The notes below the pieces were generated by a model. That model was not told where the DNA came from. It did no database searches and saw only the letters and a program-made list of their open reading frames with translations. Below are positions 31 through 5,821 of a DNA stretch of 6,181 nt, one piece after another. This DNA comes from a virus. Taxonomy: Duplodnaviria; Heunggongvirae; Uroviricota; Caudoviricetes. Position 1 is the stretch's first letter. Each line of letters starts with the position of its first letter. The position numbers were made by a program, and so were the translations under genes. The stretch is from the IMG/VR virus record IMGVR_UViG_2541047172_000022. The stretch is one strand, 5' to 3'.

Positions 31-585
31 TCAAAAAGCAATAACTTTTTTCTCTATACCAAAAGCCATAACCATTGGTTTGTACAAAATAAATTCTGCC
101 ACCTTTAGCCAATGCTCAATGCGTCTTTCACAGGTTCTTAAACTCCATTCCGGATGTGCATCATTCAGCAGTTCAGCCATTTTGCGCTTAGTCATCCCCC
201 GCCCCACATAACGCTGACTCAGAACATTGAGCAGCCCGGGATAACCTGCCAGTACTTCACCAATAACCCTGTCGATTATTAACGCCTCTGAATCGGTACA
301 ATGCACCAGCCAGCTTTTTTGCTTGCCGTTGATCATATCCCGCAAAAAAGCCTCAAGTTTAGGTTTGTCCAGACCTGCTTTTTTCATCCTCCGGAGCGCC
401 TCGTTAATTGCCGTTTTTGTCAGCTTTTTAGAGGTCAGCAACTGGTTGAACATATTTCCCGTCTTACCGCCGCCAATATACGACCAGCGCCCCCACATAC
501 GTAGTTTCCCCTGAATCCAGACACTTTCCAGCGTGGTGAGACGAAGGTGCTCTCCGCTTTTTCCTGTGTTCGTTGGGTAAATCAT
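31..585 (-). CDS. Lambdoid prophage protein of unknown function, 184 aa, downstream of the nin-type genes (possibly a late-gene regulator; not lambda-Q-like)
   Basis: Frame is open from 705, but the ATG at 585..583 overlaps the stop of the upstream gene (ATGA at 585..582) and has an AGGA-like Shine-Dalgarno about 9 nt upstream, whereas the ATG at 705 has none and would overlap the upstream gene by 124 nt. G+C resembles the adjacent phage genes. No Cys-rich zinc-finger pattern typical of lambda Q. Function is a guess from position. Confidence 0.6.
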   Translation of the reverse strand: MIYPTNTGKSGEHLRLTTLESVWIQGKLRMWGRWSYIGGGKTGNMFNQLLTSKKLTKTAINEALRRMKKAGLDKPKLEAFLRDMINGKQKSWLVHCTDSEALIIDRVIGEVLAGYPGLLNVLSQRYVGRGMTKRKMAELLNDAHPEWSLRTCERRIEHWLKVAEFILYKPMVMAFGIEKKVIAF

Positions 586-872
586 AAATAACCGTCCTTT
601 CTCCAGATCTCTTGTGTGCGAAAAACACCTTCTGCATGCATCAGGCGCAATTCTTCTTTGGTGTAATCGCTGGTTTTTACTCTCCCGTCGATTAAATCGT
701 GGCATGAGTTACAGGCAATCGCTGCCTGCATATCGTGTGGCTTTATCGCTGTTCCGCACGTTCCCGCCAGCCTGTAATGCGCCAGCACAGAGGTTTCGGG
801 ATTGTGATTGCAGTAGCCAGGGATTCTGATCTGGCATATCTGGCCTTTAGCCGCTTTACGTAAATTCACCAT
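582..872 (-). CDS. DUF1364-family putative zinc-binding protein, YbcO-like (lambdoid prophage nin region), 96 aa
   Basis: 96-aa ORF with the pattern LRKAAKG..CQIRIPGYCNHNPETSVLAH.RL.G.CGT..KP.D...AIACNSCHD.IDGR, matching what I recall of E. coli DLP12 YbcO / DUF1364 (same length, same four-Cys arrangement). Start ATG 872..870 overlaps the upstream stop (TAATG). Confidence 0.85.
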   Translation of the reverse strand: MVNLRKAAKGQICQIRIPGYCNHNPETSVLAHYRLAGTCGTAIKPHDMQAAIACNSCHDLIDGRVKTSDYTKEELRLMHAEGVFRTQEIWRKDGYL

Positions 873-1471
873 TACGCAAACTCCAGTAGTTGTGCGGCCA
901 CATTTTCAACTTCCTCCTGAGAGGAGAATTTACGGAACAGAATCCAGTTCCACAGCACATTCAGTACAGATTTATAAACCTGCTGAAACTCGACTTCGTC
1001 CATATTCGCAAAAGCGATGGATTTTGCCCGACGCCCACGGCTACCGTCCGGATAAATATGCTCGGTGTAAAATCCGGCCTGAATGGTTACCCACTCGCGG
1101 AAAGCCTCAAACGACTTTAGCAACGCCGTATCCCGGGTTCTACGAGTCGCAACGGTGTTAAGGTATTGCTCTGCGGCATCACTCAGGGCTGGCGTGTGTT
1201 CCCGACCAACTGATTCGCACAGGTAATCAACGAAACCAGACAGCAGTTCTCGTTCGCGAGGCGTGATCGCCCCACCGACCGGAGTCCAGTAATCGAATCC
1301 CAGTTGCAGGAGTTTGAAAAAACGCTTGTGGAATGCGTAGTTACGCACACGCTTAAAATCTGCGTGTATCCACTCACCTATTTTGATTTGATGCAGAAAA
1401 TCGCAACTCTCCGGCGTCGCCGGGAGAAGTAAACCAGAAGAAGTTTGTTTGACCAGTTGTATATGCGCCAT
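872..1471 (-). CDS. Lambdoid prophage nin-region protein, DUF1367-like, 199 aa
   Basis: Uninterrupted 199-aa ORF, co-directional with and coupled to the YbcO-like gene (stop TAA 874..872 overlaps its ATG). Balanced G+C like the phage backbone. DUF1367 assignment is from remembered co-occurrence with DUF1364 in prophages, not from a search. Confidence 0.7.
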   Translation of the reverse strand: MAHIQLVKQTSSGLLLPATPESCDFLHQIKIGEWIHADFKRVRNYAFHKRFFKLLQLGFDYWTPVGGAITPRERELLSGFVDYLCESVGREHTPALSDAAEQYLNTVATRRTRDTALLKSFEAFREWVTIQAGFYTEHIYPDGSRGRRAKSIAFANMDEVEFQQVYKSVLNVLWNWILFRKFSSQEEVENVAAQLLEFA

Positions 1472-1890: not shown

Positions 1891-1918
1891 TTGACTTCGC
1901 ATGCGAAGCGTTTAAAAT
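1891..1918 (+). promoter_or_regulatory. Putative sigma70 promoter of the ATPase operon (-35 TTGACT 1891..1896, 16-bp spacer, -10 TAAAAT 1913..1918)
   Basis: Near-consensus hexamers at near-optimal spacing, about 50 nt upstream of the ATG at 1971; a purine-rich AGAGAG lies about 8 nt before that ATG as a weak Shine-Dalgarno. Confidence 0.55.
1895..1908. promoter_or_regulatory. Perfect 14-bp palindrome CTTCGCATGCGAAG in the promoter spacer; putative operator
   Basis: Read directly: 1895..1908 is its own reverse complement, overlapping the last 2 nt of the -35 and filling most of the spacer. Confidence 0.45.
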
Positions 1919-1970: not shown

Positions 1971-3362
1971 ATGACTGAGAACACGACTCCAACAGCAGAC
2001 TTTAGTCCTAGTAAAAGATTTTTTGTAAGTATGCTAACTCGAGATATCGACTTAAACGATGCCATACTTGATCTGCTTGATAACTGCGTCGATGGGGCTT
2101 TACGTACAATAAAAGACACAAAAAAAACTTCAAAACCATATGAAGGATTTTATGCGAAACTTACGATTAATAAAGATGTCTTTATTATAGAAGACAATTG
2201 CGGAGGTATCCCTAAAAGCTTCCGAGAATATGCTTTTAAAATGGGACGACCCCATCAAAAAGAAGAAGAAAATGAAGGCACCGTTGGCGTCTATGGTATT
2301 GGTATGAAAAGAGCCATTTTTAAAATGGGTAGAGATTGCTCAATACAATCGAATAATCCCGATGGCGCATTCACTGTAGATATAACACCTGATTGGATCG
2401 ATGGTGATGGTTGGAAAATACCGATGCACGAGAGTGACTATGATAACAAAAATCCAACAGGCACAACTATAGAGATAAAAAAACTCCATTCTAATGTGGC
2501 ACAAAAATTTAATGAGAGCACATATCTTACTGATCTCTTTTTACAGATAAAACACTCATTGTCATTTATTATTCAAAAAGGATTTAAAATAGAATTAAAT
2601 GGAGTTGTTGTTGAACATAATCCGATTAACATCATAACTGATCATTCTAAAATAGAACCATACATATATAAAGCTAAAATAGACGATGTTGATATCGATT
2701 TAGTTGTTGGCTTCTATAAAAATTTAGAAGATGACAATGATGATGTTTTAGAAAAAAGGAGTTCTGATGATGCTGGATGGACTGTCATTTGCAATGACCG
2801 CGTTGTTCTATATTGTGATAAGACACATCTCACAGGTTGGGGCTTTGCTAATGTACCAAGGTTTCATACCCAATTTATAGCAATTTCTGGGGTTGTTCGC
2901 TTTACCAGTAAAAACCCAGAAAAATTACCAATAACAACAACGAAACGAGGTGTCGATCTTAGTTCTACATTGTACAATGATGTACGAAATAAAATGATTG
3001 AAGGGATGATGCATTTTATTCGATTCACCAATCAGTGGAAAGGTGAGCATCTTGAAGAAGGGAAAAAATTACTTAAGTCAGCTCAGTCACATGAAGCTCA
3101 ATCTTTATTTGAAATTACCCCACAATCAACTCCAGAAGATAAAAAAAATAACTGGTCCAACCCTAATAGAAACAAAAATGAGTGGCGATATACACCTAAG
3201 CTGCCTACCCCAGTAAAAAAAAGCTCTACTGTACGAATAATCTTCACCAGAGAGAAAGAAGATGTTAAAATTTTATCTAAATATTTCTTTGGACATGAAG
3301 ATGCTAGCGCTTCTGATGTGGGGATGCAATGCTTTGATACGGTGATTGAAGAGGTGAAGTGA
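1971..3362 (+). CDS. GHKL (Bergerat-fold) ATPase, MORC/MutL-like, 463 aa; candidate motor of a restriction or defence module
   Basis: All four Bergerat motifs in canonical order in the N-terminal 170 aa: N-box DLLDNCVDGA (nt 2070..2099), G1 box IEDNCGGI (nt 2190..2213), G2 box GTVGVYGIGMKRAIFKMG with the G-x-G-x-K...G pattern I associate with MORC-type ATPases (nt 2277..2330), and motif IV PTGTTIEI (nt 2457..2471). The C-terminal ~290 aa has no motif I can assign. Long clean ORF. Confidence 0.85.
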   Translation: MTENTTPTADFSPSKRFFVSMLTRDIDLNDAILDLLDNCVDGALRTIKDTKKTSKPYEGFYAKLTINKDVFIIEDNCGGIPKSFREYAFKMGRPHQKEEENEGTVGVYGIGMKRAIFKMGRDCSIQSNNPDGAFTVDITPDWIDGDGWKIPMHESDYDNKNPTGTTIEIKKLHSNVAQKFNESTYLTDLFLQIKHSLSFIIQKGFKIELNGVVVEHNPINIITDHSKIEPYIYKAKIDDVDIDLVVGFYKNLEDDNDDVLEKRSSDDAGWTVICNDRVVLYCDKTHLTGWGFANVPRFHTQFIAISGVVRFTSKNPEKLPITTTKRGVDLSSTLYNDVRNKMIEGMMHFIRFTNQWKGEHLEEGKKLLKSAQSHEAQSLFEITPQSTPEDKKNNWSNPNRNKNEWRYTPKLPTPVKKSSTVRIIFTREKEDVKILSKYFFGHEDASASDVGMQCFDTVIEEVK

Positions 3363-4351
3363 TGTCTGGACAATACATTCCCTATCACTTAAGGCATAAT
3401 AAGTCTATTGATAGAGAGATTTTTCTCGAAAGCCTAAACCTCTTAAGCAAAAGACTAAATATTCAAGAATATACATATATAGGTTTTGGTGGTCCGATGC
3501 TTGAAGATTTTAGAATCATGCATAATCGTATCGCTCTTTCTGATATGATTTCTCTCGAAGAACAAGAGTCTACTCACATCAGACAAAAATATAATTTGCC
3601 TTATAATTGTATTGATTGTAAGCTAATATCAGCTCATGACTTTATTCTTGATTATAGTTTTTCTAAACCATCAATAACATGGTTAGACTATGCCTCCCCG
3701 AAAAAAATACAAACGGATCTAGATGATATACACTTACTAAGTACTAAAGTAAGCTCTTTTGATATTTTGAAGGTCACCTTCCCCATAAATCCTAGTTCTT
3801 ATTACCAACGTAGAGTTGGAGAAAGTTTAGATATTTTTAAAGAAGCTTTTATTAATTCATTAAAATCATTGCTTGGGAAAAAGTATCTTGATTTTAATCT
3901 TCAGATATCAAATGCAGATCTTTCAGATCGTAAGATTAAAGCTCTTTTAATACGAATTATTACAAACGCTTTTAGATCAGCAATAGAACGTGGTCTTTCA
4001 GGACGTAAGGATAAGATTCAGTATTACCCATTATCCTTAAATCAATATAATGATGGCAGTCATACCATGTTGACAATATCAGGTTTTTTCTCCTCAGAAC
4101 AAGAATATATAGAGTTATCTAAGGCATGCGACCTTTCTAACTGGCAATTTTATTCAACAAATTGGGAAGACGTGCAAGAAATAGCAATACCAACACTAAC
4201 AATTAAAGAAAAGATAAATTTAGATAGTAAACTGCCTGATAAAGAAGCATATCAGGCAGCCGCTGAAGAGTTCTCTTTAAACGAAAATGAACGGGATAAC
4301 TATTATAAATACTATAGGTTATACCCTAACTTCCAAAGAATTATGGTTTAA
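3362..4351 (+). CDS. Uncharacterised partner protein of the GHKL ATPase, 329 aa from the ATG at 3362; candidate effector or specificity subunit
   Basis: The ATG at 3362 overlaps the ATPase stop (TGATG, 3360..3364) and has GAGGTG 5 nt upstream; the in-frame GTG at 3359 is too close to that SD. Same AT-rich composition as the ATPase. No PD-(D/E)xK, HNH, PLD, Walker or methyltransferase motif could be confidently identified by eye; there is a CxxC pair (YNCIDCK) and a glycine-rich IGFGGP segment. Confidence 0.8.
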   Translation: MSGQYIPYHLRHNKSIDREIFLESLNLLSKRLNIQEYTYIGFGGPMLEDFRIMHNRIALSDMISLEEQESTHIRQKYNLPYNCIDCKLISAHDFILDYSFSKPSITWLDYASPKKIQTDLDDIHLLSTKVSSFDILKVTFPINPSSYYQRRVGESLDIFKEAFINSLKSLLGKKYLDFNLQISNADLSDRKIKALLIRIITNAFRSAIERGLSGRKDKIQYYPLSLNQYNDGSHTMLTISGFFSSEQEYIELSKACDLSNWQFYSTNWEDVQEIAIPTLTIKEKINLDSKLPDKEAYQAAAEEFSLNENERDNYYKYYRLYPNFQRIMV

Positions 4352-5470
4352 ATATTCGGGCTGTACTCTTTTATTTAATAAATTGTACAGCCCCTTTAAT
4401 ATATATTCAGCAACTATTGGTGACACGCTATTTCCTATTTGTCTGAAACTATGCCATTTAGTTACATGAAAGCGAAACCAATCAGGGAAGCCTTGTAATC
4501 TAGCAGCTTCTCTTGGTGTAATCACTCTTGGATGATAAGGGTGGATCGGCCTGACGGCTTGAAAGCTTCCTTTATCTCTAGCGGTTCCCGCCCTTAAAGT
4601 CGGGCAAAAACCATTTGGATCTAATCTTGTAGATCTTGAAATTTTATCAGTTTCCCCAAAAGATAAGGAAGCATAACGCTCTTGGACGATTTTGCTATGT
4701 AATGTTCCGGTACATCCAGATATGATATTATTTTTTAACTTAGCGATCGATTCTGTATCACCAACATTCCGAGGGATCTGCCCCCATAATTTTTCATAAA
4801 ATCCCCCTTTTCGATCTTTTTTAATTGTTCGCCAACTCTCAGAGTCTGATTGCCAATTGGCATCGATAATATCTGGTAATCCATACAAAGCATCTTTTAC
4901 AGTAACCGGATCAATCATTTTAGGCATAAATACTTCATCTGAAATATCAAGCTTCAATGATTTTTTTACACCGATAAAAAAATATCTAGTTCGAATAGTT
5001 GGAGCACCATAATCAGATGCTTTTACCTTGATGGGATCAAGAATATCATAATCACCGCTAACCAAATTAAATGCTTTATTTCTAATGCCAGAATATTTCT
5101 CTTGCATAATACCTGGAACATTTTCTGCCAAAAAGAATAATGGCTGTAATTCTGATACTAAACGGTAGAAATGCATGTAAAGCTGATTCCTGCTATCATC
5201 AGGATTCCCCTTGCCTATTGAACTAAATCCTTGGCACGGAGGACCGCCAATAATACCATCTATGGGCATATCGTTTTTAAAAAAACCCTTAATTATTTCT
5301 GCATTTAGTAAAGAAACATCTTCTTGGACGTGCAAACTTCTTGGAAAATTAATTGCGTGAGTATTAATAGCATGTTGATCAATTTCAACTGCCATTTTAA
5401 CATCAAATCCAGCACGTGCAGCACCAAGACTTAGACCTCCAACGCCAGAAAACAAATCTATTACATTCAT
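4319..5470 (-). CDS. DNA cytosine-C5 methyltransferase, 383 aa
   Basis: Canonical C5-MTase motifs in order: I DLFSGVGG (FxGxGG, nt 5435..5458), IV GGPPCQGFS with catalytic Cys79 (codon 5234..5236), VI FLAENVPG (ENV), VIII PTIRTRYFFIG, IX/X RVITPREAARLQGFPDWF and QIGNSVSP. A variable region between VIII and IX is consistent with a target-recognition domain. Confidence 0.92.
   Translation of the reverse strand: MNVIDLFSGVGGLSLGAARAGFDVKMAVEIDQHAINTHAINFPRSLHVQEDVSLLNAEIIKGFFKNDMPIDGIIGGPPCQGFSSIGKGNPDDSRNQLYMHFYRLVSELQPLFFLAENVPGIMQEKYSGIRNKAFNLVSGDYDILDPIKVKASDYGAPTIRTRYFFIGVKKSLKLDISDEVFMPKMIDPVTVKDALYGLPDIIDANWQSDSESWRTIKKDRKGGFYEKLWGQIPRNVGDTESIAKLKNNIISGCTGTLHSKIVQERYASLSFGETDKISRSTRLDPNGFCPTLRAGTARDKGSFQAVRPIHPYHPRVITPREAARLQGFPDWFRFHVTKWHSFRQIGNSVSPIVAEYILKGLYNLLNKRVQPEYLNHNSLEVRV
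4357..4394 (+). terminator. Hairpin downstream of the ATPase-operon stop (9-bp stem GGGCTGTAC / GTACAGCCC, 18-nt loop, then CTTTAAT); weak candidate terminator
   Basis: Perfect 9-bp inverted repeat at 4358..4366 and 4385..4393, starting 6 nt after the partner-gene stop. It lies inside the 3' coding region of the convergent methyltransferase. The large loop and short T-run make it a weak intrinsic terminator. Confidence 0.25.
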
Positions 5471-5502: not shown

Positions 5503-5532
5503 ATTATAACACAACTGTTCTTGATGTTTTAA
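5503..5532 (-). promoter_or_regulatory. Putative methyltransferase promoter with extended -10 (TGtTATAAT) and weak -35 (TTAAAA, 18-bp spacer)
   Basis: On the minus strand a perfect TATAAT (complement of 5503..5508) is preceded by TGT (5509..5511), with TTAAAA at 5527..5532. It sits about 30 nt upstream of the ATG at 5470. Confidence 0.5.
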
Positions 5533-5732
5533 CCCCATAAGATAACCTCATAAAGGCTATCCCTTGAAAATACCGGATCGCATAAATTTAATCTTTCAAA
5601 ACTACTTGTCTATTAATCGAGCAATTTAAGGTTGTTTTAGTCATGTCGATACCGACATAGTTAACTAAACCCATTTCATCGTCCAACAAATGGGGGTAAT
5701 ACACTTTGATTTATAGTCGGGTGGGTTTTTCT

Positions 5733-5767
5733 CTATCTGCCTTTGGTGTTCATGCCCAAGGCAGATA
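5733..5767. repeat. Imperfect inverted repeat (CTATCTGCCTTTGG ... CCAAGGCAGATAG) at the right edge of the island
   Basis: Arms of about 13 bp with one bulged T, around a 9-nt loop, immediately after GGGTGGGTTTTT. No U-run follows the stem on either transcript, so it is not a canonical intrinsic terminator. Confidence 0.4.
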
Positions 5768-5821
5768 GCCTCAAGCACCCGCAGCAATTCTACTTAACTA
5801 TCCTTTTCCCGCAAATCGTTT

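Follow-up and report, generated by a model that had tools for sequence, protein, structure and literature searches.

A MORC-like ATPase and a methyltransferase-fold protein form a coupled gene pair beside an exchangeable cytosine methylase in a prophage of Escherichia coli O157:H7

Prokaryotic MORC and paraMORC ATPases, in which a GHKL ATP-binding domain is followed by an S5-fold transducer, have been placed by comparative genomics in restriction-modification (R-M) systems with Dcm and Vsr, and were predicted in 2008 to function in such systems (Iyer, Abhiman & Aravind 2008, PMC2292703). The versions described in that study carry helicases or nucleases, and a GhXhhpXXRhl motif in the S5 domain was recognised as the signature uniting the MORCs. 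Fusions of paraMORC ATPases to HEPN domains were later reported from R-M neighbourhoods and likened to the anticodon nucleases PrrC and RloC (Anantharaman et al. 2013, PMC3710099). We found no experimental test of the MORC/paraMORC GHKL+S5 family in the searchable literature. Here we describe an ATPase gene of this general kind in a 6,181-nucleotide stretch of DNA from a tailed virus (IMG/VR record IMGVR_UViG_2541047172_000022; Caudoviricetes), which is called the window below. The ATPase gene and the gene of a Pfam PF20553 protein immediately downstream form an obligate, translationally coupled pair, and a Dcm-type C5-cytosine DNA methyltransferase gene lies convergently beside them. The trio is a new variant on the MORC/paraMORC R-M theme, in which the ATPase is accompanied only by a methyltransferase-fold partner and a swappable cytosine methylase.

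The ATPase gene opens with an ATG at position 1971 and closes with a TGA at 3360-3362 on the + strand, and its 463 amino acid product is labelled 'ATP-binding protein' in RefSeq. The gene is real and under constraint, because its DNA recurs at 100% identity in 172 of the 5426 complete E. coli genomes, the product is annotated in RefSeq, more than 5430 homologues were found among 5.8 billion proteins, and the motif residues are invariant. The family comprises more than 5400 clusters at 90% identity; the listed homologues are approximately 460-495 amino acids long, cover the whole query and share 42-47% identity with it in Cyanobacteria, Nitrospirales, Gemmatimonadetes and other phyla. The first-pass annotation, which was made from the letters alone, had claimed four Bergerat-fold motifs, and all of them are present letter for letter in the open reading frame (ORF): DLLDNCVDGA (motif I, the N box; amino acids 34-43, nt 2070-2099), IEDNCGGI (motif II, G1, of DxGxG type; amino acids 73-80, nt 2187-2210), GVYGIGMKRAIFKMG (motif III, G2; amino acids 106-120, nt 2286-2330) and GTTIEI (motif IV, T; amino acids 164-169, nt 2460-2477), with D75, G78, G79 and K113 at the residues that it had named. 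The motifs follow one another in the GHKL order on an alpha/beta sandwich and are preceded by a conserved N-terminal strap, FFVxMLTRDI (amino acids 17-26). The sole Pfam assignment is HATPase_c_3 (PF13589) over amino acids 28-132 with an E-value of 2.9e-9, which exceeds the cut-off. An alignment of 40 family sequences, on which all statements about conservation in the ATPase are based, showed D34, D37, N38, D41, G42, D75, N76, G78, G79, G106, G109, G111, K113, G120 and G164 to be invariant. MutL, GyrB, Hsp90 and the MORCs have a general-base glutamate four residues before the Mg-binding asparagine (ExxxN); in this family the position is instead held by an invariant aspartate (D34-L-L-D-N38, nt 2070-2084), which recurs in a HEPN-fused paralogue described below.

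An AlphaFold2 model built from the alignment had a mean pLDDT of 83 and a pTM of 0.75. Its weak spots were the ATP lid (amino acids 97-106) and a loop at amino acids 256-265; apart from the lid, the GHKL domain scored about 80-96. An S5-fold transducer follows the GHKL domain directly, as in the MORC family. From low, separate matches of the ATPase to uS9 and to GHMP kinases, both of the ribosomal-protein-S5 domain-2 fold, we conclude that about 300 of the 463 residues are a standard GHKL plus S5-transducer ATPase module. Within the transducer, the segment G269-WTVICND-R277-VV (nt 2775-2807) is a beta-hairpin in the model and has invariant G269 and R277; it fits GhXhhpXXRhl as a pattern match and not by alignment, since a profile of the S5 region alone matched no PDB sequence. 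The same domain contains an invariant TTTKRG loop (amino acids 322-327, nt 2934-2951), whose K325 is likely, by analogy with the gamma-phosphate-sensing lysines K307 of MutL and K337 of GyrB, to be the candidate for that role here.

Beyond the transducer lies a family-specific extension in which W356-K357, L411-P412-x-P414 and V450-G451-xx-C454-F455 are conserved, and which may have a role in dimerisation or partner binding. This extension (amino acids 336-463) had no Pfam or PDB sequence match, and a Pfam search at E<=5 gave HATPase_c_3 as the sole domain of the 40 family members, leaving amino acids 135-463 uncovered in all 40. On inspection, neither amino acids 336-463 nor the C-terminal subdomain of the partner showed a conserved PD-(D/E)xK, HNH or GIY constellation of acidic, His and Lys residues. 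The first-pass annotation had described roughly 290 residues after the ATPase domain as unassigned and free of any nameable nuclease, helicase or DNA-binding motif. By Pfam, at the sequence level, none of these motifs is found beyond the ATPase domain and no model covers amino acids 135-463, but about half of the region, amino acids ~186-335, is an ordinary S5-fold transducer, and it is the last ~130 residues (amino acids ~336-463) that remain unassigned.

The same annotation had ascribed the G2 box to the MORC type, a view that our searches bore out in part. A family profile searched against all PDB sequences retrieved only MORC3 and MORC4, over motifs II-III, where 'vGvYGiGmkraifklGkk' is aligned exactly with 'VGLYGNGFKSGSMRLGKD', and a G-x-x-G-x-G-x-K...L-G arrangement is common to the ATPase family, MORC3 and MORC4. 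The E-values of these matches were marginal (0.04-0.12), however, and a single-sequence search of the ATPase against all PDB chains gave nothing significant. Pfam Morc6_S5 (PF17942) matched none of the 40 members at E<=5, so that by sequence profile the protein does not join the MORC family. Structure comparison, which had been proposed as a check against MORC, MutL, GyrB and Hsp90, gave no separation of MORC from Hsp90: Foldseek with the ATPase model returned Hsp90/TRAP1, SMCHD1, MORC2 and ParE indistinguishably (E 1e-13 to 1e-12, TM 0.42-0.50). Because Foldseek did not discriminate, Morc6_S5 did not match and the hairpin is a pattern match only, we call the protein MORC-like, that is, a GHKL+S5 ATPase closest to the MORC/SMCHD1 branch and short of a proven MORC.

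The ATG of the partner gene and the stop codon of the ATPase gene overlap by one base (TGATG). The partner (RefSeq WP_000016656.1, 'O-methyltransferase') matches PF20553, 'Methyltransf_35, putative O-methyltransferase', over its full length (E 2e-89), and 'O-methyltransferase' is here a Pfam name only. The protein has the Rossmann fold, Gly-rich motif I, acidic residue after beta-2 and acidic/aromatic motif IV of class I S-adenosylmethionine (SAM) methyltransferases, with conserved SAM-binding signatures at GFGG 41-44, E66 and D109-Y110. Since these signatures are conserved, and ten residues (R11, K14, R18, Y39, R74, W107, D109, Y229, D231 and E283) are invariant in 73 diverse members, the partner probably binds SAM and is likely to be catalytic. 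Its best structural matches are the rRNA and tRNA methyltransferases RsmD-like Rv2966c, Trm1, HI0767, RlmO and RlmI, with which only the Rossmann core aligns, and its sequence found nothing significant among all PDB chains. Clustered at 50% identity, the partner family comes to 2122 representatives; no fusions to other domains occur among the best 150 of these, all of which are stand-alone proteins of ~330 amino acids. This coupling to a methyltransferase-fold partner and to a C5 DNA methylase is the defining context of the ATPase and was absent from the first-pass annotation.

The pair is conserved well beyond E. coli. We collected 80 loci from one-genome-per-species contigs, covering many bacterial phyla and one archaeal metagenome-assembled genome; individual loci are cited by number (L003 and so on). 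The partner lies directly 3' of the ATPase gene in 76 of the 80, and a Dcm homologue adjoins in about 72, so that a DNA methyltransferase is adjacent as in a classical R-M system. The genes are usually linked as one operon; the commonest order is Dcm>ATPase>partner> on a single strand, with a median gap of -4 nt between ATPase and partner (64 loci) and of 10 nt between Dcm and ATPase, and the convergent Dcm arrangement of E. coli is typical of the proteobacterial members. When all ORFs of the 80 loci were clustered, only two further recurrent genes emerged: Vsr (PF03852), which follows the partner immediately in 32 loci, and an HhH-GPD glycosylase, which occurs in 8. These T:G repair functions are usual beside 5-methylcytosine (m5C) methylases. 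The glycosylase (PF00730), which has a C-terminal Cys cluster, substitutes for Vsr at L049:174-950, L020:8327-9172 and six further loci, and presumably does the same job at T:G mismatches left by the deamination of m5C. The remaining recurrent ORF clusters were rejected as conserved genes, being antisense shadow ORFs. No conserved helicase or nuclease neighbour was found in the 80 loci; other neighbours are mostly housekeeping genes, and defence genes (Type I, Type IIG, MADS, Mza and HerA) make up a minority. The complete trio is present in 66 of the 73 viral contigs of IMG/VR in which the ATPase is encoded.

Co-evolution was measured as the correlation of pairwise identities over 64 complete trios. 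The ATPase and its partner gave an r of 0.92, against 0.36 for ATPase and Dcm and 0.33 for partner and Dcm. The Dcm proteins form classes that are only ~37% identical to each other; within a class the three genes co-vary (r 0.68-0.77), and the similarity of the ATPases is 50% between classes and 51-52% within them. One case is that of L016 compared with L024/L025, in which the ATPases are 75-76% identical and the Dcm proteins 36-39%, the latter differing most in the target-recognition region. These correlations and class swaps lead us to view the ATPase as forming one unit with the methyltransferase-fold protein, the two being probably in physical complex, and the methylase as a replaceable third component that is swapped between lineages.

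A few loci depart from the common arrangement. At L052:4791-11204 two convergent ATPase-partner pairs have one Dcm and one Vsr between them in common, and the second pair is 36% (ATPase) and 24% (partner) identical to that of E. coli. At L077:4210-5850 the gene of a 546 amino acid paralogue of the ATPase, 23% identical, separates Dcm from the ATPase-partner pair; the paralogue combines HATPase_c_3 with a C-terminal Ymh/HEPN domain (PF09509, E 7e-34) that replaces the helical extension, and has a D-x-x-D-N motif I and a FICNDRVIV hairpin. Two tandem ATPase paralogues are found in L006 (3593-5206 and 5938-7434). Four or five syntenic cyanobacterial loci (among them L030, L042, L067 and L069) have the ATPase and Dcm without the partner, next to cinA-, aroQ- and miaE-like genes and a GNAT acetyltransferase-like gene. 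The Dcm protein of L020:9172-11187 has 671 amino acids, of which the C5-methylase domain extends to near residue 366; its C-terminal extension of ~300 amino acids had no Pfam match.

As modelled, the ATPase has the MORC/SMCHD1/MutL/Hsp90-type architecture of an ATP-operated dimeric clamp, with GHKL fused to an S5 transducer. We estimate a probability of about one half that the cassette is a methylation-linked, nuclease-free, ATP-dependent, R-M-like defence or exclusion module. We favour this interpretation because the M-[X-Y]-V layout of the cassette matches that of m5C R-M operons, because MORC and paraMORC ATPases have been placed in R-M systems (PMC2292703), because a paralogue bears a HEPN toxin domain, and because in the prophage the ATPase-partner operon is antisense to the phage early/Q operon, in the manner of a gene expressed in the lysogen, with the Dcm gene co-oriented with that phage operon. 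In such a module the Dcm enzyme would label resident DNA with m5C, and the MORC-like ATPase, complexed with its methyltransferase-fold partner, would load onto DNA by ATP-driven N-terminal dimerisation, with K325 of the transducer sensing the gamma-phosphate and the partner contributing base or DNA recognition or a SAM-dependent activity. The complex would target unmarked DNA by reading methylation status generically, and would interfere without cutting, through clamping or compaction, a replication block or the partner's SAM-dependent chemistry; we propose generic reading and non-cutting interference in view of the missing nuclease and of a pair that fails to track methylase specificity. In this respect BREX would be a nearer parallel to the cassette than a Type II enzyme.

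Several observations weigh against a defence role. Pfam, NCBIfam, PADLOC and fold searches found no nuclease, helicase or other known effector domain in the three proteins or their conserved neighbours, so the endonuclease of a classical R-M system is missing. No PADLOC 2.0 model matches the ATPase or the partner, and the PHROG families of both are labelled 'unknown function'. Our literature searches, which included PF20553, the PHROG identifiers, the RefSeq accessions, bacterial MORC with phage defence, and O157 methylomes, found no description or test of the trio, although absence there is not proof that it is unpublished. The undiscriminating Foldseek result belongs here also. Moreover, ATPase-partner pairs that are 71-76% identical accompany Dcm proteins only 36-39% identical with unrelated target-recognition regions, and a sliding-window comparison found no segment of the ATPase or partner resembling a target-recognition domain that switches with Dcm class. 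The restriction component thus does not follow methylase specificity, as judged from the sequence of the Dcm target-recognition region, and the pair appears to have no sequence specificity matched to the methylase. These swaps and the lack of a class-specific segment make it unlikely that the pair is a classical enzyme sharing the recognition site of its methylase. In seven cyanobacterial loci (L003, L008, L011, L014, L031, L041 and L055) the pair stands among housekeeping genes with no methylase nearby, a state that cells should not tolerate in the presence of restriction activity, unless a methylase elsewhere protects them in trans. By eye, the neighbours of these Dcm-less pairs are a large glycosidase-like protein, an NdhF-like membrane subunit, an ABC-transporter-like ATPase and a WD40 protein kinase. 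Finally, the invariant aspartate at the general-base position may mean that ATP hydrolysis is slow or absent, or that the protein is mainly a binding switch. Neither the Dcm-less pairs nor the Glu-to-Asp change is explained by a defence model.

A reading that goes further than defence, and that we hold to be rather doubtful, is that the cassette is a bacterial counterpart of MORC epigenetic silencing, in which the clamp and its partner read the presence or absence of m5C generically, irrespective of the target sequence of the methylase, and neutralise unmarked invaders by entrapment, compaction or methylation and without cutting DNA. A role in modification alone is no less doubtful to us. Here the m5C of Dcm would be joined by a second mark from the partner, which the clamp would load onto DNA or move along it; this mark, for example N4 methylation, might even fall on m5C DNA, and the two would shield phage or mobile DNA from host restriction, including m5C-dependent enzymes. 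The two proteins other than the ATPase are both methyltransferases whose SAM motifs are intact, the cassette has no nuclease and is frequently carried by phages (the trio in 66 of 73 viral contigs), and a pair that does not track Dcm specificity fits action on m5C or on DNA generally; Dcm-less pairs could moreover exploit m5C made elsewhere in the genome. Yet no known DNA methyltransferase requires a GHKL clamp, and the nearest structures to the partner are RNA, not DNA, methyltransferases that align over the Rossmann core only. The HEPN toxin domain on paralogous ATPases points to conflict and the M-[X-Y]-Vsr layout imitates R-M systems, while an ATPase-partner operon that runs antisense to the lytic operon is poorly placed for protecting replicating phage DNA.

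The RNA methyltransferase matches of the partner take on another meaning if the cassette acts by abortive infection, an explanation that we judge unlikely. The MORC-like ATPase would sense foreign or unmethylated DNA, or phage interference with the methylase, and free the partner to methylate tRNA or rRNA and so stop translation, in parallel with PrrC/RloC and the paraMORC-HEPN fusions, for which a PrrC-like role was proposed (PMC3710099). That a paralogue in the same operon type swaps its extension for the RNA-cleaving HEPN domain agrees with this explanation, which would also account for there being no nuclease and for a pair that is independent of Dcm specificity; but no toxin-like behaviour is documented, and stable Dcm-less cyanobacterial pairs suit a latent toxin no better than they suit a restriction enzyme. 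It is very unlikely that the pair is a repair accessory, in which a MutL-like ATPase and its partner would aid Vsr or the glycosylase at T:G mismatches from deaminated Dcm m5C. About half of the loci have Vsr or the HhH-GPD glycosylase in the same operon, and it is established that E. coli MutL stimulates Vsr, as mentioned in PMC2292703. The other half, the window included, have no Vsr in the cassette, and the proposal leaves a SAM-methyltransferase partner, whose co-evolution with the ATPase reaches r 0.92, without a role; MORC, SMCHD1 and Hsp90 are all closer than MutL, and there is no MutL C-terminal dimerisation/endonuclease domain. An ordinary histidine-kinase or two-component ATPase, lastly, can be regarded as refuted. 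Its traces are a Pfam HATPase_c match at E 0.004, below the cut-off, a noise-level NCBIfam match to DpiB (E 0.003, against a cut-off of 656 bits) and one LvrB CA domain at E 0.53 when the family profile was searched against the PDB, whereas an S5 transducer is present and no DHp/HisKA domain, sensor domain or nearby response regulator was found.

The cassette is very common across bacterial phyla and is present, as prophage cargo of E. coli O157:H7, in a genetically tractable host. As a defence system it would add a nuclease-free, methylation-reading mechanism and offer an experimental handle on the way in which MORC-type clamps became coupled to DNA methylation. Were the silencing reading true, the partnership of eukaryotic MORCs with DNA methylation would be linked directly to a prokaryotic ancestor. 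As a double-modification module only, the cassette would be relevant to phage host range and to the interpretation of enterohaemorrhagic E. coli methylomes.

In the window (Table 1) the trio occupies an island of ~4.2 kb with about 34% GC, set in flanks of 48-50% GC that belong to a Rac-like lambdoid prophage of E. coli O157:H7. With this low GC content, its replacement of the rem and hok genes of Rac, its occurrence in 172 of 5426 E. coli genomes and the frequent trio in viral contigs, the cassette is mobile and carried by prophages. The methylase matches Pfam PF00145 (E 2.6e-61), TIGR00675 and PADLOC MTase_II (E 2e-98), has intact catalytic motifs (PPC79Q and E116-N-V) and overlaps the partner gene by 33 nt at its 3' end. 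The layout fits a lysogen-expressed pair plus a phage-protecting methylase. There is weak evidence that the promoter-like site upstream of the ATPase gene is a candidate promoter of the ATPase-partner operon; the region as a whole has no more sites of this type than expected from shuffled sequence. The inverted repeat after the partner gene, with GC-rich arms of 9-10 bp and an AT-rich loop, is a possible terminator or attenuator of the convergent transcripts.

Table 1. Coordinates of features in the window.
Feature	Position	Strand	Remarks
ATPase gene	1971..3362	+	463-aa GHKL+S5 (MORC-like) ATPase, RefSeq WP_000138556.1
GHKL (Bergerat-fold) ATP-binding domain	1971..2525	+	aa 1-185; from Pfam, motif positions, invariant residues and model
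S5-fold transducer domain	2526..2975	+	aa ~186-335
Family-specific C-terminal extension	2976..3359	+	aa 336-463; mostly helical, pLDDT 73-94
Partner gene	3362..4351	+	329-aa class I Rossmann SAM-methyltransferase-fold protein, Pfam PF20553 Methyltransf_35
C5-cytosine DNA methyltransferase (Dcm type)	4319..5470	-	383 aa; convergent; Pfam, TIGR00675, PADLOC
Promoter-like site TTGACT-16-TAAAAT	1891..1918	+	about 50 nt 5' of ATPase start; 10/12 consensus matches
Promoter-like site TTAAAA-18-TG-TATAAT	5503..5532	-	5' of methylase start; consensus match only
Inverted repeat GGGCTGTAC...GTACAGCCC	4358..4393		directly 3' of partner stop codon, in last ~25 methylase codons
Q antiterminator (DUF1133), YbcO, DUF1367	31-1471	-	prophage flank genes

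On the left flank, the Q-like antiterminator ORF (31-705, - strand) matches DUF1133 and Phage_antitermQ, has a longest form of 224 amino acids and overlaps the YbcO gene (582-872); the RefSeq version starts farther downstream and has 184 amino acids. Between the DUF1367 gene and the ATPase start lies an AT-rich non-coding stretch of 500 bp (1472-1970), in which we found no Rfam match and no + strand ORF of at least 50 amino acids except a TTG-initiated one of 51 (1449-1604). It is presumably in this stretch that the island junction and the operon promoter lie. At the corresponding position phage Rac-SA53 has rem and hok/mok; in the window both are missing and the low-GC island is found instead. 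Alignment with phage Rac-SA53 showed that only the hok/sok leader is retained (window ~5724-5800, against L155:3287-3640). An Rfam match to the sok antitoxin RNA (RF01794) at 5656-5780 on the - strand was sub-threshold (50.2 bits against a gathering score of 59, E 3e-9), and a search of the window for hok-like ORFs found none left. A search for flanking direct repeats as insertion scars of the island gave only short chance matches.

Among described systems, the prokaryotic MORC and paraMORC ATPases are the closest kind (PMC2292703). They have in common with the ATPase of the window an N-terminal GHKL domain whose ATP motifs are intact and, after it, an S5 domain, a MORC-type G2 box with a hairpin fitting GhXhhpXXRhl, a patchy lateral distribution, and operons with C5 methylases and Vsr. 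Their partners, namely an SF-II helicase, the RE-fold 'NRE', HNH, TIR and RecB-like nucleases, are absent here, and a coupled PF20553 protein is found instead; 'O-methyltransferase' has 0 occurrences in the text of that paper (PMC2292703). The general-base residue is Glu there and Asp here. The individual paraMORC groups can be taken in turn. paraMORC1, a possible group for the family, has a distinct conserved extension beyond S5 and co-occurs with MORC genes or HNH endonucleases; the ATPase family has a conserved extension, and our 80 loci have no conserved MORC or HNH partner. The defining feature of paraMORC2 is missing, in that the only invariant S5 histidine is H299, in V-P-R-(F/Y)-H-T-Q-F, with no Glu four residues before it. 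paraMORC3/GHKL-Shedu proteins end in an RE-fold (DUF4263/RecB-like) E-D-ExK nuclease, for which there is here no Pfam or PADLOC match and no acidic/Lys triad; paraMORC4 ends in a TIR domain, which was not matched here, and paraMORC5 in a conserved HxH domain, whereas amino acids 336-463 contain no conserved HxH.

The eukaryotic MORC2, MORC3 and SMCHD1 are ATP-dependent dimerising clamps on DNA with ties to silencing based on DNA methylation. The G-x-x-G-x-G-x-K...G lid/G2 motif of the window ATPase recurs in them (PDB 5ix1, 5of9, 9cdf and 6mw7), at a sequence identity of only ~15%, and their coiled-coil insertion, CW zinc finger, hinge and chromatin-reader domains are absent here. Of the paraMORC-Ymh(HEPN) fusions (PMC3710099), one such paralogue is present in L077; the protein of the window has a helical extension in place of HEPN and relies instead on a separate methyltransferase-fold protein. 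The modules of HEF_HK (PF19191), Response_reg_2 (PF19192) and Dcm, known from computational work only (Bellieny-Rabelo et al. 2021, PMC8011034), likewise consist of a HATPase_c_3 ATPase, one small partner gene and C5-cytosine methylases, and likewise have no recognised nuclease. Neither PF19191 nor PF19192 matches here, and the partner has a Rossmann methyltransferase fold that is not receiver-like, so these modules are analogous and not homologous beyond the HATPase_c_3 domain. MZA, whose MutL-like GHKL ATPase MzaB is often encoded beside Dcm, is likewise a Dcm-linked defence system with a GHKL ATPase, but the NCBIfam MzaB match is at noise level here (E 0.037, 12 against 850 bits) and PADLOC gave no MzaB match. 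In BREX, a methyltransferase-fold subunit is required for exclusion. The likeness to BREX is one of function only: both have a self-marking methyltransferase and an ATPase with no recognisable endonuclease, while the cassette has no homology to the PglX, PglZ, BrxC and BrxL models, is made of three genes where BREX has six or more, and takes as its mark the m5C of a separate classical Dcm.

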